33,035 bases of DNA, taken from Thalassocella blandensis. GTDB taxonomy: Bacteria > Pseudomonadota > Gammaproteobacteria > Pseudomonadales > Cellvibrionaceae. The translations under genes were made by a program, and so were the position numbers. The stretch's first letter is position 1. The number at the start of each line of letters is the position of its first letter. Location: positions 1-33,035 of the forward strand of contig CABFPG010000016.1 in NCBI GenBank assembly GCA_902141825.1, written 5' to 3'. This document shows positions 11,935-31,216 of this stretch, in pieces. Below the pieces are notes generated by a model, which saw only the letters and a program-made list of their open reading frames with translations, had not been told where the DNA came from and made no database searches.

Positions 11935-11973
11935 CTGAAAAATATTTCCGACGCCCAAAGAACAGGCGTCGGT
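11935..11973 (-). terminator. Candidate terminator closing the minus-strand operon
   Basis: 8-bp stem CCGACGCC/GGCGTCGG with a 10-nt loop. On the minus strand it is followed by AAATATTTTT. Lies 60 bp past the last gene of the cluster. Confidence 0.4.
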
Positions 11974-12032: not shown

Positions 12033-12266
12033 CTATGCAATTAAACGGCTGACTTCCTGTATCTTTTTCTTCATAGAAAAATCAATTTCTTCCTCCTTGA
12101 TTCTCTCGAGTATATTCCCAAGAACACGTTTTTCATTTTCGTCAATTTCACCATCACGCAATGCAATACTAAGCAGAGAATCCAACTCTTTTGCATCCAG
12201 CTTGCCATCGTCGGCGAAACAGTTAATTGAGCGAAACGATATTTCCAAATAATCACGGCTTTCCAT
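12033..12266 (-). CDS. Small TerB-like / EF-hand-like acidic protein
   Basis: 77 aa. Two DG-x-(L/I)-D-x-x-E motifs (DDGKLDAKELD and RDGEIDENEK), as in the TerB/DjlA-N fold. Start is 10 bp after the zinc-ribbon gene stop. Confidence 0.45.
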   Translation of the reverse strand: MESRDYLEISFRSINCFADDGKLDAKELDSLLSIALRDGEIDENEKRVLGNILERIKEEEIDFSMKKKIQEVSRLIA

Positions 12267-12275
12267 GTGAGTTCC

Positions 12276-12821
12276 TTATACGTCAAAGTTAGTGGTTAAA
12301 TAGTGTTTTATCTCTGAAGACTTTGGGTGTTGATCAAGCCACTGCTTAAAGGCGTCTACCTTGGCAAAGGCGTCTTCTCCTAATAATTCGGTATAATGTT
12401 TTTGCCAGTGCGCATGCTGGCGTTCAGCGCGAATTTTCTTCTGCCAGGCATCCGTAAATAATTCTGGAAGATGGTCCTGCATATCCAGTTGTTTTAGCAA
12501 TTGCCACTCACCACCGTCCAGCCAGGCTTCGTCACAATGTCCGCACAGTTCTATTCGGTTTTCGGAAGAAGCATCTATCTTAAACTTTGTCATGAGCTTA
12601 CTGCATTTTGGACACAGCTTCGCTCCTTTGCTGTCAATCGCGAGGTTATTGCCTTGTTCGGTAATGATCTGGTCGTCGCTTGGTTGAAAATGATCGAGCC
12701 AGTAACGATATTGAATGAGGGAAATAAGAACCCCATGGCAATTCTGACAGCCCGCTCCTATCAGCCCTTTCTCAATCTCGGCAGGTTGAAGATCTTCTTT
12801 ACTACACGTGGGACATTTCAT
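12276..12821 (-). CDS. Tandem zinc-ribbon protein (zf-TFIIB / PF13453-like x2)
   Basis: Two copies of CPxC...17-22 aa...C(x)xC followed by WLD.GE(L/W): CPTCSK...CQNCHG and CPKCSK...CGHCDEAWLDGGEW. Confidence 0.6.
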   Translation of the reverse strand: MKCPTCSKEDLQPAEIEKGLIGAGCQNCHGVLISLIQYRYWLDHFQPSDDQIITEQGNNLAIDSKGAKLCPKCSKLMTKFKIDASSENRIELCGHCDEAWLDGGEWQLLKQLDMQDHLPELFTDAWQKKIRAERQHAHWQKHYTELLGEDAFAKVDAFKQWLDQHPKSSEIKHYLTTNFDV

Positions 12822-12860
12822 ACTTAACTCCTTTTTAAAGCTTTAGCCGTTAAACTGACA

Positions 12861-13430
12861 CTAGGTTTTCCGCCCGCGTTTACGTGTCATGATATAAGCT
12901 GCAGCAATACCCGACAGCACGCCAAAAAAATGTGACTCAAACGAGACGCGTGGATCACCGGGTAATACACCATAAATCATTCCACCATAAAATACCGCCA
13001 CAAATATGGCAATCACGATATTCACAAAATTCTTTTGGAACCAGGCAATGGCGATGGATAAACTCCACAAACCAAAAATCCATCCACTCGCGCCGATATG
13101 CCCTGACGGCCTGGCAAACAACCAGACGAGAAGTCCAGTCAACACAATAATAATGAAGCTGGATTTAACATAAAAGGGCACCCCACGAATTAAAATCAGT
13201 GCGCTGAAAATGACAAAACCCAACAGGTTATTAATTAAATGACGCCAATCCCCATGCAACCAGGGTGAAGTCAATATATAGGGTAAAGTGTGGGGGTCAC
13301 GCGGCACCAAAGCAAACTGATTCAAGCTGCCTTCGAGCAATAAATTAAGTACATGCACACCTAACAAAATACAACATAAAGTAAACAGCAACTTGATCGG
13401 CTGCCTTTTGAAGGAGGACGAACCAGACAT
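12861..13430 (-). CDS. Rhomboid-family intramembrane serine protease
   Basis: 189 aa, 6 TM. Shows WLHGDWRHLINNLLGF (TM2 HxxxN motif), the catalytic GASG (HIGASGWIFG) and the TM6 His (SHFFGVLSGIAAA). The ATG abuts the stop of the giant gene. Confidence 0.8.
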   Translation of the reverse strand: MSGSSSFKRQPIKLLFTLCCILLGVHVLNLLLEGSLNQFALVPRDPHTLPYILTSPWLHGDWRHLINNLLGFVIFSALILIRGVPFYVKSSFIIIVLTGLLVWLFARPSGHIGASGWIFGLWSLSIAIAWFQKNFVNIVIAIFVAVFYGGMIYGVLPGDPRVSFESHFFGVLSGIAAAYIMTRKRGRKT

Positions 13431-16400
13431 CTACACCCCACCGCCGTTTGTATTGGGTTCCTGTTTCCGCTTCACTGACTGCCCCTTAGTACTTTTTTGC
13501 AAAACACCGTCTTTTAGCTGCTTTTCCAGCTCACGTAGTTGTTGCGATACATCGCTCATTCGTTCATGCGTTCGCAAATCTATTTCCAGCTTTTTATCCA
13601 TACTCCGCACCAGCGGGTAAATACTGCTTTCGATAGTAGAAGCCAATACCTGTAACAATTTATCAATACCGGGCACTGGTTGATTGATCACTTCTATTTT
13701 TTGTTGGCTCGCGTGAATAGAGTCGTGTATTTTATTCAGCGTTTGCGAAACAAATTCTTGAGGATCGAACTGTGCGGGCACCAGCTCCTGCTTGTCAGAG
13801 TCCAGTCGCTTAATCTGTAATTTAGTCAGCGCGTTAGCTTCTCGACTCATCCTAGATAGAGATTGGCCCTGCTTGGACATTTCTGCAGTTGCCTGTGCAA
13901 TGGTATCCACCGTTTTCACCAGATCTACCAACTGACCAATAACTTTCATGCCAGTATCGGCTTCATCGCCTCCCATGGCTTTGTTGCGCAGAAAATCGGC
14001 TTTAATTTCACTCCATCGCGCCGCCTGCTTATCTGTCATATTCCCGCGTAACTCAGCCAGCTTTAGCAGGTTTTCTTCTGCACCAGCAGTCAGCAATTGC
14101 GCCTCTCCCAGATAGTGATCTGCAATAACCTGCATTAACTCGGCATCGTTCATCACTGAGCTGACCTTTTCCGCCATCTTATTCATATTACGGTAACTGC
14201 CCTGGAGCTTGAATGACGGTTCTGTACGGTATTTATCGGCTTGAGCTGCAGAGGCAATATATTGTTGATTAATCTTCAAGATCACATCACGAATGACAAA
14301 AAGTTTTTTCAATACATCAACAATTTCGTTTATTTCAGCACCACTGTACTGGTAATTGAAATCTGTCGTGGCGACATCTTTTCCCTGAGCCAACGCTACA
14401 AATAAATATACATCTTTAATATCCCGCGTTGCCAACGGTGCCAATACAGCATTGGACGTTAAACTATTCTCGATATAACTCAAGGCGAACTGCTCATCCA
14501 TACCACCGAGAATATCACCAAGATTATATATATCCGCTCGGTTTGCCAGCATATCTGGAATTTTAAACACCTCACCGGATTCGGTGTAAGGGTTACCAGC
14601 CATTACCACGCAAAACTTTTTACCGCGCATATCATAGGTTTTTGTATCTCCTTTCCACACACCTTCTATACGACGCGTACCATCACACAAAGAAATAAAT
14701 TTTTGCAAGAACTCTGGATGCGTGTGCTGTATATCATCGAGATACAACATGACATTATTTCCCATCTCCAACGCCAGGTTCAGTTTATTCAGCTCCTGAC
14801 GCGCGGTTGCATTCGGTGCTTGCTGCGGATCAAGCGAATGCACATCGTGTCCCAGTGATGGACAGTTTATTTTCATGAAGATAAGGCCTAAGCGACTGGC
14901 GACATATTCCATCAAAGTGGTTTTACCATAACCTGGAGGCGAAATCATCATCAGCAACCCCATAAGGTCTGTCCGCTTGCTATCGCCAACGGTACCCATT
15001 TGCTTTGCAAGATTGTCTCCGATAATAGGCAGGTAGGCTTCGTTGATTAAACGATTTCGCACAAACGAGCTTAAGGGGCGGGGTTTAAATTCGTGCAAGC
15101 GCAAGGATTTTCTTTCGCGTGCAATCACATCCTGCCGAATTTGCAAATAACGCTGGAAGTTTTGTAAGTGAACTTCGGCATGCTCATCCAGCTGCAAAAG
15201 AAACTCATCAACCGCAAAATGCAAACAACGCTTGTCGAGTTTAGGGTGTTCTCCCATCAAGCCTTCGACGGTTATTTCCAAATCCACTTCTGTGCTGCGC
15301 CGATCGATACGTTCATCAGCATTAATTAATCCTGCTGCTTCCGGGATATAACGACGCAGTGCATCCAGCTGTTTATTGTTGACCAATGCACTGAGCCAGG
15401 CACAGGATAAATTCCACCGCTCTGCCGGCCATCCGATCATTTTTTCCAATGCCATCTGGAAACGTCGCCACGATTCATTATTCAACGATCGCCGCAGCTC
15501 TTCAACGAGTCTACGTGCATATTTGCTGCTGACAAACTCGGCTCGCTCGCGCCCAAGCTCACACACCAGGTAATCTGCTGCACGACTGATGTCGAGCGCA
15601 CTGACATCCATCGGGTGCAATCGTATAAACTCCATCATGGCGTGACGAATTTCACTTGCTAATAATGCATGTGCTTCGAAACTTGAAAAGTCATCCTTCA
15701 TTTGCTCGGCAGCTTGTGCCCGCTCGATCCAGGTCTCGTATGTTAGACGCTTATTTTGCAACTGTTCAGAAATACGCTGAATATTAGCCCAGAACACTTG
15801 TGCAAAGCCGCGGCATTTAGGGTCAAAGCGAAGTAACTCGGCGCTGTTTAGAGCGGGCAGCAAATCCATTAAAATAAGCGCAGCATCATAGTCATGAATG
15901 CCTTTCTCATACCCTTCTTTGTACCTGGGTGCGGCGTAATCTCGCACCAGCTTTTGCATAAGCTCTCGATCCAGAAGTGCCTGATTCAACTTGTCCTGAC
16001 TCAATTCATTCTCATGTTTTTCAGCGCTTTTGAGAATACTATATGCAAGAAATTCCGCGCGATACACAGAGTCACTTTCAGACGCCAGACTCACATTCCA
16101 GTAAGGTTTTAGCTGGATCAAATCGTCATCGTCAATCGACTCGAAAAAATCAGTTCCACTAAGATGAATATTCAGCGCGTCATCACGCGGGATTATGGTG
16201 AGATCCAAATCCTGAGTATTCACGCTAAACTTATGTCGCGGGCCGAGTTTGATAACATTGCCGTTGTCTTCATAGATATCCGTTTTATCGCGCAAAACAC
16301 GAACGGCTTGCTCCTTTGCCGCTTTGAAACGCGCTTCAACATCGTCAGCTTTAACTTGTGCATCGAGTTTTCTTAAAGCTTCTACAAATTCACGCACTTT

Positions 16401-18833
16401 CAGTACCAAAGGATCTGAAGCGAAGTACGTATTTAAAGGGTCTATTTCGGTAAACTTTGTGGAGCGACGCTCTATACTGACCAGCACCCGACTGGCCGCA
16501 TCTGCAATCGACTGGGCTTTTCGCTGACGGGTATCCAGCAGTTGCTGCTTATGTGATTCAAAGGTTTCATAAATTTCTTCGCGTTTGGTCATGATATCCG
16601 CGAGAAATTGATCATAATCTGAAAACTGGCTCTCAAGCTCTTCCAATTGCACCAGCAAGCGAGACATTTGCTCGTCGCAACTTTGCGGGTCGTCCGCCAT
16701 TCCCAAAGCATTAGTTATACTTTGTGAAAACAATTTAAATTGTGCAGAAAATTGTGCGACCGCCTCTTCTGACCCCAGATTTTTCTGCTTGTGGGTCGCG
16801 TTCGCTTTGCTTTGGTTTAATTTGCTATATACCGCGGAAATAGCATCCACAATATTGGTACGTAATGTTGTATCGTCAATTTTCAAAGAGGTGAGCAACT
16901 CAGATAGCAGATCCAGTCCAGCCGCAATGCTTTCTATCTGCTCAATCAGGGGTTTCAGCCGGGCATTGGTATCAGCCTCCGCGACTTCATGATTGAGTGT
17001 TTCTATACTGTCTAAATAGGGAGTGAGCGCATTTTCATCCGCGAGAAATTCTACAGTTTTTTCACTCAACTCCTGTTGAACTGTTATCAGTTCATCGTCC
17101 ATCACCGCGATTTTTTCTACGTCGATGTAACGATAGTCTTTTATCGTCGTTAAGTGTCCACGTTGATGACGAATTTCATCCAGTGCGGCAACATAATCTT
17201 CTACCGTACTCCAGGACGAGGTGCGAATTCGCGAAATAATCGCGCTCTGCTGTTCAGAGGCTTTTGCCAGTGCTTCAACAGATTGCTGACGAATGTCCTG
17301 CACTTTGGCAAATTCATCTATCGCCAGCTCTGCAGTCTGTGAAATTTCCTGCAGGATAGCGGGAATTTCTCCTACGGCTTTTTCAGACAACCAGTAATGA
17401 TCGTCAAAAGCTCTGCGTGAATCCTTACTCAACTCTTCGTAAAGACGTGAAGAAACACTTTGGTTTTCTATAACACGGCTGATACTGTATAAATCCGAAA
17501 TACCACGCACCAGAGCTGCATTACCAATGCGTCCAAAAAAGGACTGGCTCTCGGGTTGCTTACTGGCAAACTCGTCACTAAAAAAGGGGGTAACCCAGAT
17601 CTGCATTGGATGCACTCGGGTAGCATCTTTTTCCGCGGAAAAAATCACAAGCGTCCCGTCTTCAGCCAGTGCATACCCATGGCCGAGGATTGGATTCTGC
17701 AGGGTTTTACTTATCATGTTGTATGCAAGTAATGCCACTACACCATCTTCAGGTTCATAGAAAACAAATAAGACGTCTTCACCGTTGGGAGAGCGAATCA
17801 TCCGCTTGTATTTCAGTCCTGCAATTGCATCATCATAACTTTTGTGCTCGCCCGACTGAAGGTAATATCCACCAGGAAATACGATGCCATGATCTTCTGG
17901 CAGTTGTACACAGGATGCGCCGATGGCATCTATACGCGTGACTTTTTGTGTCAATGTATTAAATACCAGATATCGCCACAGCGTTTCCTGATAGGGCAGC
18001 ACTTTCAGTAAAATGAGATCGCCAAGCCTGGCGAAATGGAATTCGGCATCATCAATCGACTGGGTTTTATTCTCCACAGGTTCACTGTATATACCACGCC
18101 CTTCCTGAGTGTTGTTCTCCACTTTTACCGTGAGATCGCCGCCGTGTGTTTCCACAAAGATCGTGTCCAGAATATTAATATGTGGAAACTTTCCGTGAAT
18201 AACATCATCCCGGCCACAGGCAGTCCATTCAAAATCATAAGCGGGTGGCAATTGAATATCACGCTCACCGCGATTATCAATATACTTATCAACGGCGCCC
18301 TCTGGGGTTAAGGAAAATCGGAAAACCCGAATATCCTCTATTCGCTCACCTATTTGAAAGCCCAGCAACAACTTGCCATCTTTGATGGTGACTTCCTGAA
18401 TTTTGGTATGTTTGTAGTAGCGATAAAGTTCTTGAAAATCTTTATTAAAGTTTTTATCAGATAGAAACGTATCGGCTATATCCTGTTGTTGTACGGTGTA
18501 CTCATCGCCCTGCTTTACAAGTTTAAACAGCGAAAATACGTCTTCTATTTTGGTTTCTTTCTTCAGACCGATGAAGACGTTGTAGGCAAACAACAAATAG
18601 TTTCCGACCTGTACGATATCCCGGGCCACGCAATTGTTTTCCGTGCGCACACGAACTCGTGCAGCAACAGTGAGTTCCGACCCACCAAACTCTGCCAGAC
18701 GAGCCTCATTTAAAACTTTTATTTCAGCTGCAAGCGCATTTCCCTGGTCCGTTAATCGCTTTTTAATAACCTCATAAGCGCCTCCTTCAGCAACGGCCTT
18801 ATCGACTGTATTTTCTTTTACGGCTTCAGACAT
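13431..18833 (-). CDS. Giant (1800 aa) coiled-coil protein with an embedded MoxR/AAA_5-like P-loop ATPase domain; function unknown
   Basis: A single uninterrupted ORF. The ATPase core lies at residues about 1290-1430. It contains Walker A (SPPGYGKTT), Walker B (VMLYLDDIQH) and sensor-1 (VVMAGNPYTES), with arrangement and spacing like MoxR/dynein-type AAA_5. Long heptad-like E/K/Q/L-rich segments lie at about 560-900 and 1500-1800. The N-terminal 550 aa appear beta-rich and globular. Confidence 0.8.
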   Translation of the reverse strand: MSEAVKENTVDKAVAEGGAYEVIKKRLTDQGNALAAEIKVLNEARLAEFGGSELTVAARVRVRTENNCVARDIVQVGNYLLFAYNVFIGLKKETKIEDVFSLFKLVKQGDEYTVQQQDIADTFLSDKNFNKDFQELYRYYKHTKIQEVTIKDGKLLLGFQIGERIEDIRVFRFSLTPEGAVDKYIDNRGERDIQLPPAYDFEWTACGRDDVIHGKFPHINILDTIFVETHGGDLTVKVENNTQEGRGIYSEPVENKTQSIDDAEFHFARLGDLILLKVLPYQETLWRYLVFNTLTQKVTRIDAIGASCVQLPEDHGIVFPGGYYLQSGEHKSYDDAIAGLKYKRMIRSPNGEDVLFVFYEPEDGVVALLAYNMISKTLQNPILGHGYALAEDGTLVIFSAEKDATRVHPMQIWVTPFFSDEFASKQPESQSFFGRIGNAALVRGISDLYSISRVIENQSVSSRLYEELSKDSRRAFDDHYWLSEKAVGEIPAILQEISQTAELAIDEFAKVQDIRQQSVEALAKASEQQSAIISRIRTSSWSTVEDYVAALDEIRHQRGHLTTIKDYRYIDVEKIAVMDDELITVQQELSEKTVEFLADENALTPYLDSIETLNHEVAEADTNARLKPLIEQIESIAAGLDLLSELLTSLKIDDTTLRTNIVDAISAVYSKLNQSKANATHKQKNLGSEEAVAQFSAQFKLFSQSITNALGMADDPQSCDEQMSRLLVQLEELESQFSDYDQFLADIMTKREEIYETFESHKQQLLDTRQRKAQSIADAASRVLVSIERRSTKFTEIDPLNTYFASDPLVLKVREFVEALRKLDAQVKADDVEARFKAAKEQAVRVLRDKTDIYEDNGNVIKLGPRHKFSVNTQDLDLTIIPRDDALNIHLSGTDFFESIDDDDLIQLKPYWNVSLASESDSVYRAEFLAYSILKSAEKHENELSQDKLNQALLDRELMQKLVRDYAAPRYKEGYEKGIHDYDAALILMDLLPALNSAELLRFDPKCRGFAQVFWANIQRISEQLQNKRLTYETWIERAQAAEQMKDDFSSFEAHALLASEIRHAMMEFIRLHPMDVSALDISRAADYLVCELGRERAEFVSSKYARRLVEELRRSLNNESWRRFQMALEKMIGWPAERWNLSCAWLSALVNNKQLDALRRYIPEAAGLINADERIDRRSTEVDLEITVEGLMGEHPKLDKRCLHFAVDEFLLQLDEHAEVHLQNFQRYLQIRQDVIARERKSLRLHEFKPRPLSSFVRNRLINEAYLPIIGDNLAKQMGTVGDSKRTDLMGLLMMISPPGYGKTTLMEYVASRLGLIFMKINCPSLGHDVHSLDPQQAPNATARQELNKLNLALEMGNNVMLYLDDIQHTHPEFLQKFISLCDGTRRIEGVWKGDTKTYDMRGKKFCVVMAGNPYTESGEVFKIPDMLANRADIYNLGDILGGMDEQFALSYIENSLTSNAVLAPLATRDIKDVYLFVALAQGKDVATTDFNYQYSGAEINEIVDVLKKLFVIRDVILKINQQYIASAAQADKYRTEPSFKLQGSYRNMNKMAEKVSSVMNDAELMQVIADHYLGEAQLLTAGAEENLLKLAELRGNMTDKQAARWSEIKADFLRNKAMGGDEADTGMKVIGQLVDLVKTVDTIAQATAEMSKQGQSLSRMSREANALTKLQIKRLDSDKQELVPAQFDPQEFVSQTLNKIHDSIHASQQKIEVINQPVPGIDKLLQVLASTIESSIYPLVRSMDKKLEIDLRTHERMSDVSQQLRELEKQLKDGVLQKSTKGQSVKRKQEPNTNGGGV

Positions 18834-18896
18834 ATGTGTTCCCTTGCTCTTACTTTATATTGGATCTGCGAACTGATTAAACAGATTTGGTCCGAT

Positions 18897-19322
18897 TTAC
18901 TTATTTGCTGTGGAGGTTTGATCGGAGCTTTCGGACGATTTCTCGTCAGACGCTCGTAACTTTCGCGCGGCTTTTTCGCTGCATGACGAGGATTGATGCG
19001 AATTTACCAACCAATTCATTGTTACACCCAAAGCCGCTCCGATTCCCGCCCCCAGAAGAGCGTTTTGCAACGAGTTTTCGTTCTGCCCTGCTTTGCTGAT
19101 GCCAACACCAATACCTGCACCAATGCCCGCACCTATCCCAGCGGCAACTCCCGTTCTGGTACCCGTATTGGTCTTGACCTGCTCCCGCACGCTACCCAAT
19201 TTGCTGATTAATACATTTCTCAGTTCGGATGAGGTAACCAACTCCGTCAACCCCTGATTGTGCAATTCTTTTTGCAGCTGCTGAATTAAACTCGACAGCG
19301 GTACTTCACTTTGTTGTTTCAT
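18897..19322 (-). CDS. Glycine-zipper (GxxxG-repeat) small membrane protein
   Basis: 141 aa. GVAAGIGAGIGAGIGVGI ... LLGAGIGAALG, a classic glycine-zipper (YMGG-like) pattern. Confidence 0.6.
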   Translation of the reverse strand: MKQQSEVPLSSLIQQLQKELHNQGLTELVTSSELRNVLISKLGSVREQVKTNTGTRTGVAAGIGAGIGAGIGVGISKAGQNENSLQNALLGAGIGAALGVTMNWLVNSHQSSSCSEKAARKLRASDEKSSESSDQTSTANK

Positions 19323-19396
19323 AGGTTCGATCTATTTTATTTGTAAAGCTCTGCTTTACCGAACGCTGACTCACGTCAACGTTCGGCTGCTTCGGC

Positions 19397-21307
19397 TTAC
19401 TGCAACTCTTGCGAGTTTTGCGGTGCTCCAGCCATCACTTTGGCAAGAATGGCCTGAATAGTGCCGCTCTTTTCTGCCAGACCATCGACAGCCTTGCCGA
19501 TCGATAGCGACTTGGCAAAGTTATCAAAGAAGTGCTCTTCCCCACCGACAATATCGATTTTCGCTTTTTCCAGAGCCGTTGCCAGTACTTCGGCATTCTC
19601 TTTTGCAATATCTTTCCCAGCGTCAATCGAAGCCAGTGCTTCCTGCAGTGCAGTTTCCAGACTCATACGGAACTCTTCATGAGCTCTGGCCGCATCACTC
19701 ATACTGTTCATCGCACTGAACTTGTCCACCAGACCATCTGCTTCTGCTTTGAATTTCTCACGAATAACTTCAGCATCAGCCAATCCGGTTTCGCGTTTGG
19801 CTTTCGCCTCAGACTCACCTTTGAGCGCAACCACTTTCGCTTCTGATTCACCCTGTGCTGCCGTAATATGGGCTTTTGCCAAACCTTCTTTTTCCATGGC
19901 GTCGGCCATAGCTTCCTGCACTTTCGCTTCGGCTAGACCACTCGCGGCCTCTTCTGCCTGAATGCCTTCGGCGAGTTTCTTCTTCGCATCGGCTTCTTTC
20001 GCTGCCGCTTCCAGGTTCGCCTGGGCCATGGTTGTAATTTCCATCGCTCGGTGTTTGGCCGCCAGCTCTTCTGCTTCTGCACGCTTCACTTCTTTCACTT
20101 TTTCTTCTTCGGCCAACGCTTCCGCATCCAATACTTGCGTTTGCTTACGACGATCCGCTTCGGAAACCTCACGCACTTCTTTAATTTTCTCTTCTTCTAT
20201 CGCAACTGTCTTATCCACAGACACGCGCTCACGAATGACATTGGCAATTTCCTTTTTCTGTACCTCTACAGCTTTTTCAGCATCGATTCGCTGCAATTCC
20301 ACTTCTCTCTCGCGCGAGACAATTTCAAGATCTTTTGCTCGGGTGACCTTCTCAATTTCAATCACTACTGCACGCTGACGGTTTTGCTCCGCCACTTCGA
20401 TCTCACGTTGTTGATTCTCCTTCTGAACCGCCAGCTCCTGATCCGCCGCAATAGTGGCCGCTTCAGATTTCAAGCGCTCCTCTTCCTGCACTTTGACTGT
20501 TTCCGCCTCTTCGCGCGCACGAATGGTGGCGATTTCACGTTGTTGGCGAGCTTCAGCATCAGCTTGTTGTCGCTCGAGTTCAAGCATAGCCTCAACGGTT
20601 TCTACATTCTTTTTCTTGATAGCAAGCTCTTCATCGCGCTCAAAAATATTTGTTTGAACATTTTGAGCAGCCGTGAGTTCAGTGATTTTACGAATACCTT
20701 CAGCATCAAGAATATTGCTGGGGTCCAGAGAGGACTTCGGCGTTTGCTCCAGATAATCGATCGCAACATCTTCCAGCACATACCCATTTAAATCATTACC
20801 GATTACCTGAATGATTTTGTCACGAAACTGTTGTCTATCTTCAAACAGATTGACGAAATCAATTTGTTTACCGACAGTTTTCAGTGCTTCAGAAAATTTT
20901 GCATTAAATAATTCGTTGACAGCATCTTTATCCGATGCACGATTTGCACCCAGGGACTTTGCCACTTTTAAGACGTCTTCGGGGGTTTCGTTCACTCTCA
21001 AATAAAATGCAACGGTAATATCCGCCCGCATATTGTCACGGCAGATCAACCCATCTTTAGCTCGCCTATCCACTTCCATAGTGATCAATGAAATCCTCAT
21101 CAACTCTTTTTTATGGATGATTGGCAGTATCCAGGCGCCGGTGAAAAATACTTTTGGCTTTGGAGTCGTGTCGTTTTTAATCAGCGCCACACCTTGCTCT
21201 ACTTTCACATAGAAAGCTTTGTATAGTGCAGCGACAACCATTAAGAATAGAAATAACAGACCGATGGTGATTATCACCATAACAACATCTGGTGCAAACT
21301 CTGACAT
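19397..21307 (-). CDS. yqiK: Flotillin / SPFH (band-7) family protein, YqiK-like, with extended coiled-coil C-terminus
   Basis: 636 aa. N-terminal TM helix, then an SPFH domain (...ISLITMEVD...ITVAFYLRV...), then 350 aa of an E/A/K/R-rich coiled coil. AAGGAG RBS. Confidence 0.85.
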   Translation of the reverse strand: MSEFAPDVVMVIITIGLLFLFLMVVAALYKAFYVKVEQGVALIKNDTTPKPKVFFTGAWILPIIHKKELMRISLITMEVDRRAKDGLICRDNMRADITVAFYLRVNETPEDVLKVAKSLGANRASDKDAVNELFNAKFSEALKTVGKQIDFVNLFEDRQQFRDKIIQVIGNDLNGYVLEDVAIDYLEQTPKSSLDPSNILDAEGIRKITELTAAQNVQTNIFERDEELAIKKKNVETVEAMLELERQQADAEARQQREIATIRAREEAETVKVQEEERLKSEAATIAADQELAVQKENQQREIEVAEQNRQRAVVIEIEKVTRAKDLEIVSREREVELQRIDAEKAVEVQKKEIANVIRERVSVDKTVAIEEEKIKEVREVSEADRRKQTQVLDAEALAEEEKVKEVKRAEAEELAAKHRAMEITTMAQANLEAAAKEADAKKKLAEGIQAEEAASGLAEAKVQEAMADAMEKEGLAKAHITAAQGESEAKVVALKGESEAKAKRETGLADAEVIREKFKAEADGLVDKFSAMNSMSDAARAHEEFRMSLETALQEALASIDAGKDIAKENAEVLATALEKAKIDIVGGEEHFFDNFAKSLSIGKAVDGLAEKSGTIQAILAKVMAGAPQNSQELQ

Positions 21308-21332
21308 GGCTAAGCTCCTTTTATAGCTTTGT

Positions 21333-22019
21333 TTAGATTTTAAATTCTTGCTCAGAAATAACTTTATAAATATTTTCTTCCGCTACGTACTCCAGCAGCA
21401 CTATTTTATCTCCCCGTTTAAACTCCTCTTCACTTTTATATGATCTCACCTTCACAATCAGTCCTGCGCCTCCATCGTTCACTGTGGCTTCGCCAAATTC
21501 AGTATTTACAATAGAAGTTCTTACTAGCGCCGATTGACCGACTATCACTTTCTGCACTTCCTGATGCGCAGTTTTGAAAAAATCACGAAAAGGATTGAGC
21601 AATTTCCCTGTAATCATGGCAGCAGCATACAGGACGCCAACCAACACCGCTAAAGCGACAATAAATTGCACAATTCCATCAGGTATAAAATGGAAAGTAT
21701 ATTCTACGATGAGAAAACTTAGAATCCAGCCGATTAAACTTACCAGAAAAAATACAAGCGGCATGGGAATACCAACCAAGCCCAGACGCATCATAATCCC
21801 GGCTAAAACATGGCTGCTGGTCAAGCCTTCAGAGCCATCTAACCCGCCGTCAATATCAGGACCATCAAAGTTCAAAAAATCCAAATCAATCAGACCTAGA
21901 ACTGCAATCAAGCCAAAGAACGTAAATAAGATTAGTAGACAAGTAAAAACAATGACAGGAAATGTCAAAATAATATTATAGAAAGGGTCCATTGCTTCAG
22001 TGAAAAAAATTGCAAACAT
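21333..22019 (-). CDS. yqiJ: NfeD/YqiJ-like inner-membrane protein with C-terminal OB-fold
   Basis: 228 aa. Four to five TM helices, then a soluble C-terminal beta domain (GQSALVRTSIVNTEFGEATV...GDKIVLLEY). This is the canonical flotillin partner and sits 25 bp upstream of it. GGAGG RBS. Confidence 0.7.
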   Translation of the reverse strand: MFAIFFTEAMDPFYNIILTFPVIVFTCLLILFTFFGLIAVLGLIDLDFLNFDGPDIDGGLDGSEGLTSSHVLAGIMMRLGLVGIPMPLVFFLVSLIGWILSFLIVEYTFHFIPDGIVQFIVALAVLVGVLYAAAMITGKLLNPFRDFFKTAHQEVQKVIVGQSALVRTSIVNTEFGEATVNDGGAGLIVKVRSYKSEEEFKRGDKIVLLEYVAEENIYKVISEQEFKI

Positions 22020-22517
22020 TTACGTCCTCCGTATGCACACCATTGCTATATCAGCAATATTTTTTGTTGTTATTATCAGGTTTAAATTCCATAACAAACA
22101 ACCTAGTCCAGCAGGAATGGCAGGTTATTCGCAGGAATGTTAATTTAAACACTCCACTCGATACCACCTCTCTTTTGATTCTCTCAAATATATCCTCCAG
22201 AGAAAATCATCCATTTAAGCTTCCTGGACCGCCTGTTACAACCTGAAAAATTGATTCGTCCGTGAATCCTGACATCCCTTTTCCTCCTTTCCTTACGACA
22301 ACTCTCCCACTATATCTGAAAGGGTCTTTGCCTGGATATGCGTTTTTAGAACCACCGTAAATGCCAGACAAACTCCTACAACTCCTGTAACCTTGCTGCA
22401 GCAACATTTCCATAATATCGCTACATGAAACAGTTCCGTCCTGTAAACCGTTTTTCCTCCGTGATCCTCTTGCGTCCAATCCCATTCAGATTTTGTTACA
22501 TTCGAATACGCCTGGCG

Positions 22518-23201
22518 TTATCGCTTTTTCAGACGATCAAGCACATCTTGAGCACTTTTCCCCGTTGAAACAATGCCGGCTTGCTGTAGCTTTTGCTGCA
22601 ATGAGTCCTCCGAAGTCTCTTTGGACAGTTCACTCGCTGCCTGCATCTGAGCAGCTTTAAGTTGCTGCTTTTCCTTGATGCGCTCTAAAGACTCCATTGC
22701 GGTTCTCAACTTTGAATTTGTTCCACTGTGACGCTCCGCTACAGCAGCTTGCGCACGCTGAACATTTTCAGTCGCCTTCACCGTGTCTACCTGCTGCTTC
22801 AAGCGTTTGATATTCTGATCGGCCAGTTTTATGGCACCGCGCAATTCATTCGCACTGACCTCATAATTTGTAGCAGCTTCTTTTTCAGACTGCAGCTGGT
22901 TTTCAAAATCAGCAATTTTTTGTGCAACCTCCAAAGCTAGCGCCTCGTCATTTTTACTTAAGGCCTGCTCTGCGTACCCCTCATACTCACTGATAGTATT
23001 TGTTAACTGAGTACATTTTTCTTCCGCAAGCTTTTGCCTTGCAATGATGGTGGCCAACCCATCTTTCGACTGCTTCAGCTCTTCCGTTGCCTCTCTGACT
23101 TCCTGGTCAAGAATGCGTAAGGCTTGTGAATCTACAATGGCCTCACCAGCTTCGTTCACACCGCCACGAAGAGCGGTCATCATCTTTTCCCAAATATTCA
23201 T
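22518..23201 (-). CDS. pspA: PspA/IM30 (Vipp1, ESCRT-III-like) family protein, YjfJ-like
   Basis: 227 aa, all-helical. N-terminus MNIWEKMMTALRGGVNEAGEAIVD, heptad pattern and length match PspA/YjfJ. AGGAGAGG RBS. Confidence 0.8.
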   Translation of the reverse strand: MNIWEKMMTALRGGVNEAGEAIVDSQALRILDQEVREATEELKQSKDGLATIIARQKLAEEKCTQLTNTISEYEGYAEQALSKNDEALALEVAQKIADFENQLQSEKEAATNYEVSANELRGAIKLADQNIKRLKQQVDTVKATENVQRAQAAVAERHSGTNSKLRTAMESLERIKEKQQLKAAQMQAASELSKETSEDSLQQKLQQAGIVSTGKSAQDVLDRLKKR

Positions 23202-23217
23202 CTTCCTCTCCTCAAGC

Positions 23218-23889
23218 TCACGCCTCTACAGGCTGCTTTAAAAAATTGCTATAAGCTTCGGTTGCCTGAATTACGTTTGATGCCAACACTTCAATCTCAA
23301 AAACAATATTGGGCAAGACCGAAGATGCACTTAACGCACCAAACATCTGATAATAATCCTTTCCGTTAGTCAGCGTATCCAGACTAATAGTTGAAAGAGG
23401 AAAGTATTTATGAGTCCGCAACACAGCCTCATTAAATGCACTAACATCTTTCACCTCGTCCACCGACCACAAAACAGCCTCTACGATAATCTGATCACCC
23501 GACACGGTGAGAAACAAAGGCAAATCACCCACTTCATGCATTATCAGATGTATGGCCGGCTCGATACCGTCAATCAACTCTATGCTCGCTAACTCACCAT
23601 TAAACAGCGGCTCTGAACAAAGCGCTTCGTATAACCCTGAGGTGGTCCAACGTTTAATTTCTGCCATCATCCAATCTCCTTTTTGTATTGATCGTGTGGA
23701 TATTGCGCTCTCGTGCACGCTTCCAGTCAACGCCAGATCATCCGCCACTTTTGCACGCAATTGCTTCTCGTATTTCGCCAGATACTCAGCATTTTCGGGC
23801 AAGATCCAAACTTCCTTCTTCACCAGGCCCAATTCGCGTAACCGGCGGCGATATTCTCTCTGGTAATGTGCTGATGATTTTGGCTTCAT
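23218..23889 (-). CDS. yjfI: DUF2170 (YjfI-like) protein with 90-aa basic N-terminal extension
   Basis: The C-terminal 130 aa resemble E. coli YjfI, the partner of yjfJ/pspA-like genes. The N-terminal extension is Arg/Lys-rich (QREYRRRLRELGLVKK...). The 16-bp gap to pspA supports co-transcription. Confidence 0.55.
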   Translation of the reverse strand: MKPKSSAHYQREYRRRLRELGLVKKEVWILPENAEYLAKYEKQLRAKVADDLALTGSVHESAISTRSIQKGDWMMAEIKRWTTSGLYEALCSEPLFNGELASIELIDGIEPAIHLIMHEVGDLPLFLTVSGDQIIVEAVLWSVDEVKDVSAFNEAVLRTHKYFPLSTISLDTLTNGKDYYQMFGALSASSVLPNIVFEIEVLASNVIQATEAYSNFLKQPVEA

Positions 23890-23907
23890 GTGAGTAACTC
23901 TACCCTG

Positions 23908-23964
23908 TTACATGTAATAGGTCAATAAAATTACATGTAAACATGTATAAAACATTACATGTAA
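23908..23964. promoter_or_regulatory. Operator-like array: three perfect 10-bp palindromes TTACATGTAA (plus one degenerate copy) at 23-24 bp phasing
   Basis: Read directly at 23908-23917, 23931-23940 and 23955-23964; degenerate AACATGTATA at 23940-23949. Sits in the 92-bp gap immediately upstream of the yjfI-like start. Confidence 0.55.
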
Positions 23965-23981: not shown

Positions 23982-26168
23982 TTATATATATTTCAATAAC
24001 TTAAACTTAAATGCCCTGGCAAGCAGGAGGTCAGGAAACACTTTGCACCGACTGTTATATTCTTCCACTGCATCGTTATAACCTTGCCGCAGCACAGCAA
24101 TTTCATTTTCCAGATGTGTAAGCTGCTGAATCAATTTCGCAGTAAGGCTGTGGGCCTTGAGTTGCGGATATGCTTCCACCACCGCCGTCGCCTGATGCAC
24201 CAGATGCTCTAGATCTCCCTGTGCCGCGCTATCGACACTAATCGCTGACCACTGCCGACGCATATCCGCCACAGTTCGCAATAGTGCCTCTTCATGCTGC
24301 ATGAACTTATGGGCAATTTTATTAAGGGCAGGCACTAGATTCTTCCGTTTCCGTAACGCAACCTCAATGTTAGCCCGGTTCCGCATCGCTCTTTTTCGCA
24401 GAAATACGAGATCGTTGTAATGCAGGATTATCATCAGATTCAGGAGAAACACCGGCGACAGCATGGCGGCAAACAAAAAATCCGTGGTTGCAAAGCGACC
24501 ATTTAAGCCGAGCCAGGCCAGCACAAAGTAAAGGCCCGCACTATACGCAAGAGTCAACAATGCCAGCCCTGCGCGCGCCTTACGCAAAAGAAGTGCCCGC
24601 TCTGTTAAGTTCGACAGCAGGTACAAAGATTTTTTACCCGCCTCTCTCATACACAATCTATCATCCTGCTTCATATCAATCGCCACAGGACCAAGCGCAT
24701 ATAAGGAATCCTGTGACGCCAGCCATTCAACAAAGTAGTGGCGGCTACCGCGATATTGGCTTTCGCTGTGTTTTGAAATTACTTCTGCCTTCGCGGGATA
24801 AATCTTCAGCGAGCCACTCTCATCCACACACAAAAATGGAACGGCCTCTTTCCTATCCTCAATGGTCACCCAACGGGTTTTCCCACCACTACTTCGCTTC
24901 TCTTTGACCCGGTAGCGGTACCACATACATGGCACGCCGGCCAAAGGCGCTTCCAGAGTCCTGGAATTTATAGCCTCGACACGCCCCAACACCTCATTCA
25001 ACCCACAACTCACACCGACTACTTTACTGGTCCGAATATTTTCGATGGCCCGCTTAACAAATATAAGCTTCACTCCAAAAAACACTGCGAGTACAGCCAC
25101 CAACGCCGATATCCCCATAATCCATATCCCGGAAACAGACGACAAAGCGACATCATCAAGCCCCCGTTTTCGCTCCTGCAACAACTCAAGCTCCTGAGGC
25201 GAGATAACCACCTCTAATGCGGGTAATGAGATTTGCCACAGCGGCGCCAACCATCGCTCGGGTATTCGCTGAAACTGTTGATGCAATTGGGTGTGTGACA
25301 TTGCCAATGCCAAACGCATTTCACGAGATTGCAAGGCATCAATCGCATTTTGCCTCAGCGCCACCTCTACCGCCGCCTGCTGTTTGTCATACCGCTCGAC
25401 GGCGTTGTGCAAATCAGCCTTCATCATTAACAGCGACAACTGCACTAGAACCAAGGCTACCGTAACCGCAATAATGCTGATAAACACCAGCACACGATGA
25501 ATACCGAACATGCAAACCAACGCATAGATAGCCACACAGCTCAGCGTCAACCCAAGCCATAAACGAAATAATACTGATGCACCTATTTTCCCCAGCACCG
25601 ATGCCGAAGAATTCGTGGTTATGACAGGATTGTATTGACCGGCCTGACGAAAGCCCAACGACATGCCATTTGAGCGGGATTCCGCAAAGCCAAAAGCCAC
25701 CAGCTGCTGACCGGGATCTATGCGATATTCGGTGTGACGGGTAGAACCGTCAGTACGTGTAAAACTGCGTGCAACCTGCCATTCAATATGTGATTGGTCA
25801 CGCTGACTCAGCAATTGAATTACCGCTGTAGAATCTCGCAGGGCTATCGTCGACGCACGACGAATATTTTCAACGGTTTTCCAGCTTGTATTACCATCAG
25901 AATCACGCTCTTCTACTTCGCGTATGTATTGAAAATATAGACAGGGGGTTTGAGTGAAATGACTTGCTATTGTCGCCCCCTCAGCAGTACCAGCCACTTT
26001 GACCTCGCCAGGTAGAACCGCAATATTGCGCGTGAGCGGAATACGCTCCATTTGTCGAAGCTGCTGTAGTGTTTCAAACCCTTGCGAAGTAAAAAAAACT
26101 GCTCCCGCGCCCCCCAACCCGGCGGACAACAGTAAAACCAACCACCACCTCAAAGACATTCGTGCCAT
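23982..26168 (-). CDS. Membrane protein: duplicated GIDE-like domains fused to a C-terminal LemA domain
   Basis: Internal duplication: TPCLYFQYIREVEERDSDGNTSWKTVE aligns with VPCMWYRYRVKEKRSSGGKTRWVTIE. Each copy is preceded by TM helices. The C-terminus matches the LemA family (...NLVPALNKIAHKFMQHEEALL...VEAYPQLKA...NEIAVLRQGYNDAVEEYN...FPDLLLARAFKFK). Start set at the Met before the signal/TM segment. Confidence 0.65.
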   Translation of the reverse strand: MARMSLRWWLVLLLSAGLGGAGAVFFTSQGFETLQQLRQMERIPLTRNIAVLPGEVKVAGTAEGATIASHFTQTPCLYFQYIREVEERDSDGNTSWKTVENIRRASTIALRDSTAVIQLLSQRDQSHIEWQVARSFTRTDGSTRHTEYRIDPGQQLVAFGFAESRSNGMSLGFRQAGQYNPVITTNSSASVLGKIGASVLFRLWLGLTLSCVAIYALVCMFGIHRVLVFISIIAVTVALVLVQLSLLMMKADLHNAVERYDKQQAAVEVALRQNAIDALQSREMRLALAMSHTQLHQQFQRIPERWLAPLWQISLPALEVVISPQELELLQERKRGLDDVALSSVSGIWIMGISALVAVLAVFFGVKLIFVKRAIENIRTSKVVGVSCGLNEVLGRVEAINSRTLEAPLAGVPCMWYRYRVKEKRSSGGKTRWVTIEDRKEAVPFLCVDESGSLKIYPAKAEVISKHSESQYRGSRHYFVEWLASQDSLYALGPVAIDMKQDDRLCMREAGKKSLYLLSNLTERALLLRKARAGLALLTLAYSAGLYFVLAWLGLNGRFATTDFLFAAMLSPVFLLNLMIILHYNDLVFLRKRAMRNRANIEVALRKRKNLVPALNKIAHKFMQHEEALLRTVADMRRQWSAISVDSAAQGDLEHLVHQATAVVEAYPQLKAHSLTAKLIQQLTHLENEIAVLRQGYNDAVEEYNSRCKVFPDLLLARAFKFKLLKYI

Positions 26169-26312
26169 AATGCTTCCTTCTCCACTCTGCTTTTGCATGC
26201 GCCGCGCAATAAATCTAACCTGTGCATTCGGACGTATACCCTTGCACCTGACTTTATGCACTCACACATTTACAATGTAAACACACTATAAGCAGCGAGA
26301 GTAAGTATTCGC

Positions 26313-27458: not shown

Positions 27459-27543
27459 CGCCGCGTGCTTTGTTTAATTTTTGAATAGCTCCATATTTTA
27501 TTCAAAATATATACTACGCAGAACGCACCCGCATACAACAACA

Positions 27544-28300
27544 TTAGAGCACACAAGAAGTCTCGAGCCATTTACTAAAAATTTTCCTGGCATTTACTTT
27601 AGGTGTTGCGATTTCATGGTTTGGTACAAGCAGGTACTGCGGAATGGCTGAATGCGGACACATTTTTGTTAGCAGTTGATATTCCGCTAAGCATGCATTT
27701 AACTTACTGATGAGTATCGACAAAAGCAAACTTGATTGAATGAGTTGGTGTTTTAAAGTTTCTGCGCTAGCTACCTTGATTTTTTATACAAACCTAATGC
27801 TTAGTAAGAGTTTTGCAGCCAGCTCAAATATTGTAAGTCAAAAGGCAGCAAAACAATGGCGGAAGATGCTATAACATTTTATAAAGGCACAGAGTATTAC
27901 GTCGTATACCGCACAAAGAATTTTACAAATATTCAGCTGTACTCAACGTTATAAATCAATCAGATCGAACACGATTGTTAGGCTTAAACTCTATCGTTTG
28001 ATCTTTTTGGTTGAATTCAATCGCTTCTGGTCTTATTGACCCCCTCCCTGAGAAGAATCGTTCGGTCCTTATTGCCCTACTGTTAAATACCATTAAAGAA
28101 TTTCTGTCAAAATGAATCTCTTGAATTCTTAAACGCAAACATTCAGATACTCACAACCCATCCCATAAAGAAGCGCGATAATCAGCTTATCTCTTTCCTT
28201 GAGTTCTTCAAGAGTGGCGGCAACTTCGGATGGCGAGAGAATCCCGAGTATACGACGCAGTCTCTTTGCCAATGTAAAACCCGAATCACCAAATTTAATG
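27544..28300 (-). pseudogene. intI: Integron integrase (intI) pseudogene: nonsense mutation plus frameshift in Box I, decayed termini
   Basis: Minus-strand translation of 28150-28299 gives ...LAKRLRRILGILSPSEVAATLEELKERDKLIIALLYGMG (tyrosine-recombinase Box I; IntI has [11 protein letters not shown]). The continuation is in another frame: GL*VSECLRLRIQEIHFDRNSLMVFNSRAIR (IntI has [28 protein letters not shown]). No intact 320-aa ORF. A weaker C-terminal remnant lies at 27544-27729. It is divergent from the cassette array, as in integrons. Confidence 0.55.
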
Positions 28301-28899
28301 TTGAAATATTTTTAGGTAAAGAAACTCTAAAATATTCAAAATAACTTTCTGTGTATTTATCGCAATGTTTTTAACAGCCAAGCAGGTAAGAAAACTCTTG
28401 ATATTTGAACGCCCATTTCATTTAGCTGACGCCTATTGTTGAAATGAAGAAAAAGCCGAATCCAGTACAAATATGTTTTTCAGCAGGGATACTAAAGCCC
28501 CACAAACACAAATCCGCCCTGACGGATTCAATAAACTTACTAGACATAGCGCTAACTTCTGAAACGCAAATCATGTATATACATACAGCTATATTAAAAA
28601 GGAAGCGAGAAGACTTCAATTTTTTACTCGGTTTGCCAACTAAACTATGCTAAGTTATTCCTACTTTAACCCCTCAAAAAAATTAAAATCGCTTTATAAT
28701 CAATAGCTTATTCTAGAAGGACGGGGAGATAGTCCGCACGCTCAAAAGTGCAAAACCGCGCATGCGCAATTTTCTGCAAACAAGGAATGTTCAATTCGTA
28801 TTTTATTTCTTGTTTTTCAGTAACTTGACTTGATCATCTAGAAAATAGGTGAGGTGCATATTGCGCATGCGATATATACAAATGTTAGGGCTCTGCGAT

Positions 28900-29364
28900 A
28901 TGAAGTACCTTTTTCTATCAATAGCAGTAACCATATGTGGGTGTGCATCCAATACGATTGAAAATATTGATTTTAAAGAGTGGTACCCTATCGGATATGA
29001 AGGATTTCTGGAATCAATAAACTTATCTTCAGGTTCAAATGTTGAAAATTGTGGCTTTCACGACTTAATGACCGAAGAGGGAAAAAAGAGTGTTGAGTAC
29101 GGATACAAGTGCGCAAGACAAAATGCTAATGCTGGAAAACCATTTAAGTTTGGTACGGTACGATTACCTATTGATTCTTTCGCATTTGAGATCTTAATAG
29201 GGACAGCGGATAGCGAATACTGGCTCGTGGTTTATGATGTTATGATTGACGGAGATGCTCCTCAGCAATGGGCAAAGAAATGCAACTCAATTAAGTTCAG
29301 TCGAAAAAACCAAGATTACGAAGGTAAAAGGTGCGGTGAAATCAATAGCGAAGTATGGCCCTAA
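28900..29364 (+). CDS. Cassette 1: small lipoprotein, unknown function
   Basis: MKYLFLSIAVTICGC|AS lipobox. The TAA stop is embedded in the attC R'' box (CCCTAAC). Confidence 0.55.
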   Translation: MKYLFLSIAVTICGCASNTIENIDFKEWYPIGYEGFLESINLSSGSNVENCGFHDLMTEEGKKSVEYGYKCARQNANAGKPFKFGTVRLPIDSFAFEILIGTADSEYWLVVYDVMIDGDAPQQWAKKCNSIKFSRKNQDYEGKRCGEINSEVWP

Positions 29365-29475: not shown

Positions 29476-29511
29476 TTCACAATGCATCCCACACTATATA
29501 AGGAATAATAT

Positions 29512-30763: not shown

Positions 30764-30770
30764 GTAAACT

Positions 30771-31214: not shown

Positions 31215-31216
31215 AT

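Follow-up and report, generated by a model that had tools for sequence, protein, structure and literature searches.

A Candidate Bac-Type Envelope-Stress Operon in Thalassocella blandensis: Organization, Conservation and Possible Working of a Flotillin-PspA-AAA+ Gene Cluster

Organization of the Cluster

The object of this analysis is a cluster of genes for predicted membrane-associated proteins found in the marine gammaproteobacterium Thalassocella blandensis (Cellvibrionaceae; assembly GCA_902141825.1), within positions 1 to 33,035 of contig CABFPG010000016.1; this whole stretch of 33,035 nucleotides (nt) is referred to as the window. The cluster is a co-directional minus-strand block (12033-23889) of nine well-supported genes, comprising homologues of the PspA and flotillin families, a gene for a giant AAA+ ATPase of 1800 amino acids (aa) and a gene for a rhomboid protease. 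In the order of transcription, the genes and the predicted signals surrounding them are the following (bp, base pairs):

23955-23964, 23931-23940 and 23908-23917, no strand: three exact TTACATGTAA palindromes at a spacing of 23-24 bp, putative operator
23897-23925, minus strand: sigma-70-type promoter-like site (TTGACC-17 nt-TAGAGT) 5' of the first gene, predicted by consensus scan
23218-23889, minus strand: bacA/yjfI-like gene, 223 aa (Pfam DUF2170, 167.9 bits; NCBIfam equivalog BacA, "biofilm formation regulator BacA", 302.3 bits, with the cutoff at 300)
22518-23201, minus strand: PspA/IM30 gene of the YjfJ/BacB type, 227 aa (PspA_IM30, 158.7 bits), 16 bp after the DUF2170 gene
22020-22517, minus strand: non-coding gap of 498 bp, read as a deletion remnant from the comparison with the nearest relative
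21333-22019, minus strand: YqiJ/BacC-like protein, 228 aa, with three transmembrane segments and a C-terminal soluble beta-rich domain (hhalign, hydrophobicity)
19397-21307, minus strand: YqiK/BacD-type flotillin, 636 aa, with one N-terminal transmembrane segment, an SPFH domain and a long E/A/K-rich coiled coil
18897-19322, minus strand: small Gly-zipper protein, 141 aa (weak YiaD/YMGG Gly-zipper matches)
13431-18833, minus strand: giant AAA+ protein, predicted to be cytoplasmic, 1800 aa, BacE/PA3728 orthologue according to Pfam domains and fold models
12861-13430, minus strand: minimal rhomboid intramembrane serine protease, 189 aa (Rhomboid, 65.7 bits against a cutoff of 22.6)
12276-12821, minus strand: soluble protein with two TFIIB-type zinc ribbons, 181 aa (Zn_ribbon_TFIIB, 28.1 bits)
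12033-12266, minus strand: acidic protein of 77 aa with two DGxxDxxE loops (weak TerB and EF-hand matches)
11948-11972, minus strand: intrinsic-terminator-like hairpin (10 bp stem, seven G-C pairs) followed by a T-run, predicted by terminator scan

The gaps between successive genes measure 16, 498, 25, 74, 63, 0, 39 and 9 bp, and the TAG of the giant gene is followed by the ATG of the rhomboid gene with no base in between. The hairpin at 11948-11972 is the top terminator candidate of the region and is located 60 bp past the last gene. The promoter and terminator predictions, as well as the tight or abutting junctions, speak in favor of a single transcription unit, so that the cluster is probably transcribed as a whole, starting at the sigma-70-type promoter and ending with the terminator at 11.95 kb. 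A site resembling the sigma-54 consensus (TGGCAC-N5-TTGC) was not found near the start of the first gene, either in the window or in Pseudomonas paraeruginosa; Wallart et al. 2024 (PMC10948618) proposed a sigma-54 promoter for the corresponding operon of Pseudomonas aeruginosa. Moreover, Pfam and NCBIfam scans of the cluster disclosed none of the PspF, PspB and PspC domains of the classical Psp system.

The initial annotation of this DNA had recognized both the co-directional minus-strand block and the abutting giant and rhomboid genes, but it counted ten genes and placed the other gaps at 10-60 bp, which does not agree with the distances given above. The tenth gene can only be an open reading frame (ORF) of 92 aa at 22207-22485, which was rejected as a gene since it has neither a family match nor a counterpart in any related locus. 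The gene labels proposed there are essentially right, on the basis of Pfam, NCBIfam and hhalign, and in particular of the YqiK and YqiJ profile matches and of the YjfJ and YjfI alignments described below; it is the TerB-like label of the last gene that turned out to be weakly supported.

Protein Families Encoded by the Cluster

The PspA-like protein can be aligned over its full length with Escherichia coli YjfJ (37% identity, E 6e-40), and the alignment of the BacA-like protein with E. coli YjfI is restricted to residues 110-214 of the former. Searches of Pfam, NCBIfam and the PDB, whether with sequences or with profiles, returned no match for the flotillin-like and the YqiJ-like proteins; their identification is therefore based on the comparison of family profiles with the E. 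coli proteins (hhalign), in which the 636-aa family matched YqiK with a probability of 99.9% (E 1.8e-31, about 400 columns including the SPFH domain), and the 228-aa family matched YqiJ with a probability of 86.6% (E 4e-6), the latter being the weaker of the two assignments.

The giant protein (TDB9533_04732) matches the Pfam families DUF3686 (661 bits), DUF7902 (90.5 bits), AAA (26.6 bits) and AAA_5 (25.5 bits). In an alignment of 12 homologues, the Walker A motif GYGKT (1301-1305), the Walker B motif LYLDD (1363-1367), the AGNP motif (1412-1415) and R1432 are invariant. The predicted layout consists of an N-terminal helix, a beta-propeller (about 60-420), long helices including DUF7902 (about 440-850), a helical domain, a single AAA+ module (about 1290-1520) and C-terminal helices; no transmembrane segment is predicted along the protein. 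The AlphaFold models are of moderate confidence (predicted local distance difference test scores, pLDDT, of 67.7 and 62.8); they place the AAA+ core at about 1300-1520, and the AAA+ fold was confirmed by structure matches with CbbQ/NorQ on top. The MoxR-like label used in the initial annotation, which refers to a clade usually paired with a VWA-domain partner, is best taken as tentative. The N-terminal model also retrieved IFT-A, nucleoporins, clathrin and CORVET coat-like proteins with template-modelling scores (TM-scores) below 0.1; homology to coat-like proteins was rejected on the basis of these values, and the matches show just that a beta-propeller is followed by helices. No solved structure related by sequence to the giant protein was retrieved, profile search included, nor did the exact-sequence look-up return any record.

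The rhomboid protein carries the motifs HxxxxHLxxN (in the second transmembrane segment), GASG (Ser115) and H167xxGxxxG, each conserved in at least 90% of 33 homologues, and should thus be catalytically active. Its identification as a rhombosortase was rejected (34.4 bits against a cutoff of 84). The zinc-ribbon protein contains the CxxC...CxxC arrangement twice, a conserved WLDxGEW motif and a helical C-terminal domain. The score of the 77-aa protein against Pfam TerB is 16.1 bits (cutoff 24.4, E 0.014), and in its family weak matches to TerB were obtained in 14/18 cases (best E 5.8e-5) and to EF-hand models about as often (13/18). Since both kinds of models match weakly, the label should be limited to that of a small acidic, possibly cation-binding protein.

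Conservation of Gene Order

In order to place the cluster in a comparative context, the alignment of 12 giant-protein homologues was used to collect 80 genomic loci, selected as the top-ranking among at least 551 confirmed relatives (related loci are indicated by L numbers where needed); the counts given below, based on tblastn and on the clustering of ORFs, refer to those 61 loci whose flanks extend for no less than 6 kb upstream and 4 kb downstream. The giant ATPase itself was found in at least 551 species of the genome collection, and 5708 proteins matched it in a large protein database.

The giant gene is accompanied by the YqiJ-like and flotillin genes in 61/61 loci, Actinomycetota and Deinococcota included, and in all of them the former lies directly upstream of the latter. 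PspA is found in 54 and DUF2170 in 53 loci, and the gene order is colinear in 53/61 genomes. The rhomboid gene is present in 41 loci (in 39 on the same strand), a PLD gene (identified as PLDc_2, 112.6 bits) in 29, the 77-aa family in 24 and the zinc-ribbon gene in 23. The recurrence of this arrangement across the 80 related genomes greatly exceeds what chance would produce. Flotillin and the YqiJ-like protein are obligatory partners, PspA/BacA, rhomboid and PLD are frequent ones, and some further genes are lineage-specific. The loci of Streptomyces and Deinococcus consist of a small protein, flotillin and the ATPase only. An exception to the otherwise strict linkage is represented by L025-L028, from Methylococcales metagenome-assembled genomes, where homologues of the giant ATPase (62% identity) were found and flotillin, YqiJ and PspA were undetected in the available flanks; the contigs are short or fragmented.

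The position of the accessory genes varies. The rhomboid gene mostly follows the ATPase gene; in Kangiellaceae and in plasmid pQBR103 it is located between PspA and YqiJ, and in two loci it is divergent and upstream. The 77-aa gene may follow the zinc-ribbon gene, lie between PspA and YqiJ or, in Pseudomonas, between flotillin and the ATPase. The zinc-ribbon gene varies in position as well; it is divergent and upstream in L039 and L045, an arrangement that occurs in Arenicella. Since these genes move within the cluster and yet stay linked to it, their distribution is good evidence of a functional association. A peculiar organization is that of L085, the plasmid pQBR103 of Pseudomonas fluorescens SBW25 (positions 84437-97641 of the record), in which ten genes lie in one row (YjfI, PspA, rhomboid, YjfK, YjfL, YjfM, YjfC-like ligase, YqiJ-like, SPFH and giant ATPase); the two PspA-CesT operon classes distinguished by Ravi et al. 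are thus merged on this megaplasmid.

The nearest relative, whose giant protein is 81% identical to that of the window, permits a reconstruction of the local history. There, the order is ferrochelatase, DUF2170, PspA, DUF2059, 77 aa, 59 aa, YqiJ-like, flotillin, Gly-zipper, ATPase, rhomboid, PLD, zinc ribbon and TerB-like, with ferrochelatase directly flanking the DUF2170 gene. The comparison indicates that in the window the PLD gene was lost, that the three genes following pspA were lost as well, leaving the 498-bp gap as a remnant, and that a LemA/GIDE gene was gained at 23982-26261. This last gene (minus strand), placed between ferrochelatase and the operon, encodes a 759-aa protein with multiple transmembrane segments, a C-terminal LemA domain (108 bits) and GIDE. 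It was rejected as a member of the cluster because neither the nearest relative nor any of the 80 loci carries it (0/61 upstream by tblastn), and it represents the local insertion of another gene for a membrane-associated protein. The Gly-zipper gene, whose family likewise scored 0/61 by tblastn, has counterparts in the same position in the two closest relatives only (L001, 82 aa, and L082, 119 aa), and is a lineage-specific insert.

The gap after pspA contains a stretch of 65 nt (22244-22307) including a hairpin (GATTC-N6-GAATC) followed by a T-run, which is 85% identical to the spacer after pspA in the nearest relative, compared to 72-75% for the flanking genes. Counterparts of the stretch or of the hairpin are located at 4887-4950 and 4962-4977 in L082 and at 6125-6141 in L001, and a GC-rich hairpin occupies the same spot in many more distant loci. 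This hairpin may represent an attenuator that fixes how much PspA is made relative to the products of the downstream genes. Rfam yielded no match in the gap or in the window, and the fold z-score of the gap (-2.1) is unremarkable. A possible 22-aa ORF in the gap was rejected, since it is destroyed by an indel in the nearest relative.

The First Gene and Its Putative Operator

The BacA-like protein comprises a conserved basic N-terminal domain (about residues 3-45) and the DUF2170 domain, which has a CesT/Tir-like chaperone fold. In long DUF2170 proteins, the conserved basic segment reads KSSAHYQREYRxRLREQGLVKKEVWILPEN. The N-terminal domain gave weak, sub-threshold matches to the MazE-like family PF11455 in 29/40 homologues and a likeness, also below threshold, to NCBIfam UrfF. 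The published crystal structure of BacA spans 139 residues, i.e., the DUF2170 domain (Wallart et al. 2024, PMC10948618).

The three TTACATGTAA palindromes fall within the 60 bp 5' of the first gene, with the proximal copy embedded in the spacer between the -35 and -10 elements of the predicted promoter; besides these three copies, the sequence has no other match in the 33-kb window, even allowing one mismatch. Where the DUF2170 gene is of the long form, the 100 bp preceding it contain at least two copies of ACATGT in 39/41 loci, compared to 4/1127 control upstream regions, and the two proximal copies are spaced by 21-25 bp in 36 of these 39 loci, P. paraeruginosa included. In related loci, a TTGAC -35 element is again found between the proximal pair of palindromes. 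Loci with a short DUF2170 protein (about 135 aa) lack the ACATGT palindrome in five cases out of six, the exception being L066, and have instead two copies of TGACATAATATGTCA or of a close variant. In Kangiellaceae and in L066, the short DUF2170 gene is accompanied by a separate RHH-like protein encoded after pspA; this regulator was considered as a homologue of the BacA N-terminal domain and rejected, the comparison revealing no homology. Both the N-terminal domain and the upstream palindromes are missing in the case of E. coli YjfI. The presence of the palindromes, which among the related loci are conserved upstream of the DUF2170 gene in L002-L079, then co-varies with the basic N-terminal extension of DUF2170/BacA.

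The simplest reading of these data is that BacA might combine, in one fused protein, an autorepressor that binds DNA and a sensor domain of the chaperone-like type. This reading is based on the conservation of the putative operator, on its co-variation with the N-terminal domain, and on the derepression of the operon in a bacA mutant of P. aeruginosa, in which BacB-F accumulate 6- to 13-fold (Wallart et al. 2024, PMC10948618). A literature search with the operator sequence retrieved nothing relevant, and no mention of the TTACATGTAA palindromes over the promoter or of the N-terminal domain was found in the P. aeruginosa BacA papers that were read; Ravi et al. (PMC11237479) do not describe promoter palindromes or an N-terminal domain of the DUF2170 protein.

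Comparison with Known Systems

The cluster can be recognized from its sequence as the T. blandensis orthologue of the Bac, or CesT-PspA-flotillin-AAA+, envelope-stress operon, which forms part of the best explanation of the locus. A description of this operon class was published by Ravi et al. 2024 (mSystems, PMC11237479), and the architecture given there (CesT/Tir-PspA, band-7/flotillin, an AAA+ protein with coiled coil and beta-propeller, and YqiJ/YuaF) matches that of the cluster exactly; according to the same authors, abbreviated flotillin-YqiJ-ATPase versions are widespread and the PLD of the bacF type, not found in the window, is optional. In P. aeruginosa, the corresponding "biofilm-associated cluster" bacABCDEF (PA3732-PA3727, or PA14_16140-16200) shares the first five families in the same order, with 50-66% identity, and RT-PCR (reverse transcription PCR) products over every junction revealed a single bacA-bacF transcript (Wallart et al. 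2024, PMC10948618). In P. paraeruginosa (L065), whose bacA gene is preceded by palindromes of the TTACATGTAA type, PLD lies directly after the giant gene, and therefore bacE corresponds to the ATPase and bacF to PLD. The P. aeruginosa protein PA14_16190 carries the database name "ATPase involved in DNA repair". Unlike the P. aeruginosa operon, the window lacks bacF, has a Gly-zipper gene before the ATPase gene and has the rhomboid, double zinc-ribbon and 77-aa TerB-like genes after it; many non-aeruginosa Pseudomonas harbor both rhomboid and PLD. As for the phenotype, osmotic shock induces the PspA-like PA3731, on which biofilm formation, swarming, rhamnolipid production and virulence depend (Macé et al. 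2008).

Other systems share parts of this organization. In E. coli, YjfI, YjfJ, YqiJ and YqiK (from yjfIJKLMC and yqiJK) are homologues of the products of genes 1, 2, 3 and 4, respectively, but the yjf and yqi loci are 1.2 Mb apart and possess neither the giant ATPase nor a rhomboid. In the pspA-ydjGHI (samGHI) operon of Bacillus subtilis, the pspA gene is joined by genes for an SPFH protein and for a two-zinc-ribbon protein (PMC11237479). The zinc-ribbon protein of the window recalls this two-ribbon YdjG, although the B. subtilis operon encodes a membrane-anchored YdjG and the TPM-domain protein YdjH, and no AAA+, rhomboid or DUF2170 protein. The presence in one cluster of the genes for an ESCRT-III-fold PspA and for an AAA+ ATPase resembles the ESCRT-III/Vps4 pair, and an analogous role was proposed by Ravi et al. 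(PMC11237479). An analogy, and only that, can also be drawn with the assemblies of SPFH scaffolds and proteases (HflK/C-FtsH and the mitochondrial SLP2-PARL-YME1L), in which an SPFH protein, a protease partner of the intramembrane or AAA+ type and an AAA+ motor come together; the mitochondrial complex pairs an SPFH protein with a rhomboid. Unlike in those assemblies, the AAA+ protein of the window has no protease domain and no predicted transmembrane segment.

These comparisons bear on the earlier reading of the locus, according to which a giant ATPase with the YjfI-PspA and YqiJ-flotillin modules joined around it had not been described: this claim of novelty is refuted by Ravi et al. and by Wallart et al., who reported the operon class and its transcript, respectively. 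The cluster thus belongs to a named operon. The suggestion of a stress-linked maintenance or remodelling of the membrane agrees with the published interpretation of the operon class, while the statement that every major bacterial membrane-maintenance module is combined here was an overstatement. What would remain new is the conserved linkage of the rhomboid, zinc-ribbon and TerB-like genes, and the BacA operator together with the N-terminal domain. The linkage of these three genes to the operon was not mentioned in the literature searched, and neither rhomboid nor TerB is mentioned in the main text and the one supplementary file of Ravi et al. (PMC11237479).

Alternative Explanations

It might be argued that the cluster is not one machine, but a set of two or three independent neighboring units, i.e., a yjfIJ-like pair, a yqiJK-like pair with the ATPase, and the small genes. 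The modules are indeed separate in E. coli, YqiJ-flotillin-ATPase trios without PspA exist in Streptomyces, Deinococcus, Xenorhabdus and others, and the 498-bp gap after pspA contains a hairpin and a T-run, with a GC-rich hairpin at this point in many relatives. However, the hairpin is equally consistent with an attenuation setting the stoichiometry of the products, and the part of the gap that precedes the YqiJ-like start codon was devoid of promoter-like sites in the consensus scan, the only two candidates nearby being one on the minus strand inside the YqiJ-like gene and one on the opposite strand. Besides, the colinear order found in most genomes, the RT-PCR products over every junction in P. 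aeruginosa and the co-derepression of all six proteins in the bacA mutant (PMC10948618) argue against independent units, an explanation that we consider unlikely.

A second possibility is that of a dedicated anti-phage system, acting through a membrane defence of the abortive-infection type, which the initial annotation had put forward as an option. PLD, TerB-like and large AAA+ proteins are common in defence systems. Moreover, PA3728-PA3732 are up-regulated in phage-infected P. aeruginosa; the induction of the operon in osmotic shock and biofilm, however, points to a general stress response. PADLOC returned only coiled-coil and P-loop noise (all E >7e-5), PHROGs gave nothing useful, and the giant-ATPase family was found in 0/50,697 phage records and in 13/72,556 plasmid records, mostly megaplasmids or chromids. 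The identity of the ATPase (53-81% across gammaproteobacterial orders and 44-49% in other phyla, such as in Deinococcus and Streptomyces) is unlike that of fast-evolving defence genes, and the flanking genes encode metabolic or secreted enzymes rather than defence functions. The absence from phages, the rarity on plasmids, the strong chromosomal conservation across phyla and the empty PADLOC search weigh against both a dedicated defence and the "DNA repair" label, so that the anti-phage option is left unsupported and appears improbable. Finally, that the giant protein is a DNA-repair ATPase incidentally surrounded by membrane genes is very improbable, since the name "DNA repair ATPase" of many RefSeq entries traces only to the description of Pfam DUF3686 (a family not found in the literature searched) and to copied names, Pfam and NCBIfam detected no nuclease, helicase or DNA-binding domain in it, flotillin and YqiJ adjoin its gene even in distant phyla, and the level of the protein goes up along with those of PspA and flotillin when bacA is mutated (PMC10948618).

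Proposed Functioning of the Cluster

The explanation that we favor, with a probability of roughly 60%, is that the cluster is the orthologue of the Bac envelope-stress operon and functions according to the scheme of regulation, effectors, ATPase and accessory proteins outlined here; its function would most likely be that of an autorepressed envelope-stress, membrane-remodelling module. According to this scheme, the BacA-like protein would repress its own operon through the TTACATGTAA palindromes overlapping the promoter. The repression might be released by partner switching, depending on the occupancy of the chaperone domain by PspA and on the departure of PspA for the damaged membrane. From what is known of its family, PspA, with its ESCRT-III fold, would coat or remodel the stressed inner membrane; on the same grounds, the YqiJ-like protein with its three transmembrane segments and the YqiK-type flotillin would form an SPFH scaffold or microdomain. 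The giant ATPase could use ATP to assemble or take apart this scaffold, the PspA polymer, or the two together, a role suggested by the strict linkage of its gene with flotillin and YqiJ in 61/61 genomes. By analogy with the SPFH-protease pairs, it can be speculated that the rhomboid, translationally coupled to the ATPase, cleaves a membrane client in or at the scaffold and, again speculatively, that the double zinc-ribbon protein and the 77-aa acidic, possibly cation-binding protein act as adaptors or sensors.

Several points weigh against this scheme. No report of a physical interaction of the ATPase with flotillin or PspA was found, and the PspA-DUF2170 pair is missing from 7-8/61 loci; therefore, the ATPase may serve flotillin only. 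The resemblance of the BacA N-terminal domain to DNA-binding families is limited to sub-threshold scores, and the sigma-54 promoter proposed for P. aeruginosa by Wallart et al. has a consensus that was not found here. The models of the giant protein are modest (pLDDT 63-68), with fold matches beyond the AAA+ core at TM-scores below 0.1. As regards Thalassocella itself, co-transcription over the 498-bp gap, with its hairpin and T-run, is a prediction.

Other Features of the Window

The region 27500-33035 has a lower GC content (0.37-0.46) and contains small plus-strand ORFs of 171, 168, 101, 147, 93 and 189 aa; no Pfam match was obtained for the three that were checked, and no PHROGs match for the six. 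The sign of the GC skew flips near 29 kb, together with a switch of the coding strand. At 6708-8885 (minus strand), a gene unrelated to the cluster encodes a secreted-type multidomain protein with astacin peptidase, ricin-B lectin and CBM5/12 domains.

Implications

The operon class to which the cluster belongs is widespread; in P. aeruginosa, it has links with biofilm formation and virulence, as well as with the phage response. A further step, which we advance tentatively and regard as doubtful in its entirety, is that BacA is a repressor-chaperone that both reads TTACATGTAA and senses PspA, and that the rhomboid, the zinc-ribbon protein and the acidic protein belonged to the ancestral machine. 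The comparative data predict a concrete operator and a BacA DNA-binding domain, both of which can be addressed in P. aeruginosa, where the earlier analysis used a 139-aa BacA construct and proposed a sigma-54 promoter.

If this joint reading is true, the published six-gene description would be incomplete in two ways, that is, with regard to the regulation by BacA and to the accessory members. The operon would be governed by a stress circuit that works with sigma-70 and partner switching and is conserved over the range from Pseudomonas to Cellvibrionaceae, and the ancestral machine would have included an active rhomboid, a double zinc-ribbon adaptor and an acidic cation-binding protein together with the flotillin cage and the giant ATPase. 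Such a machine would represent a bacterial counterpart of the SPFH-rhomboid-AAA+ quality control and of the Ca2+-triggered ESCRT-III repair.

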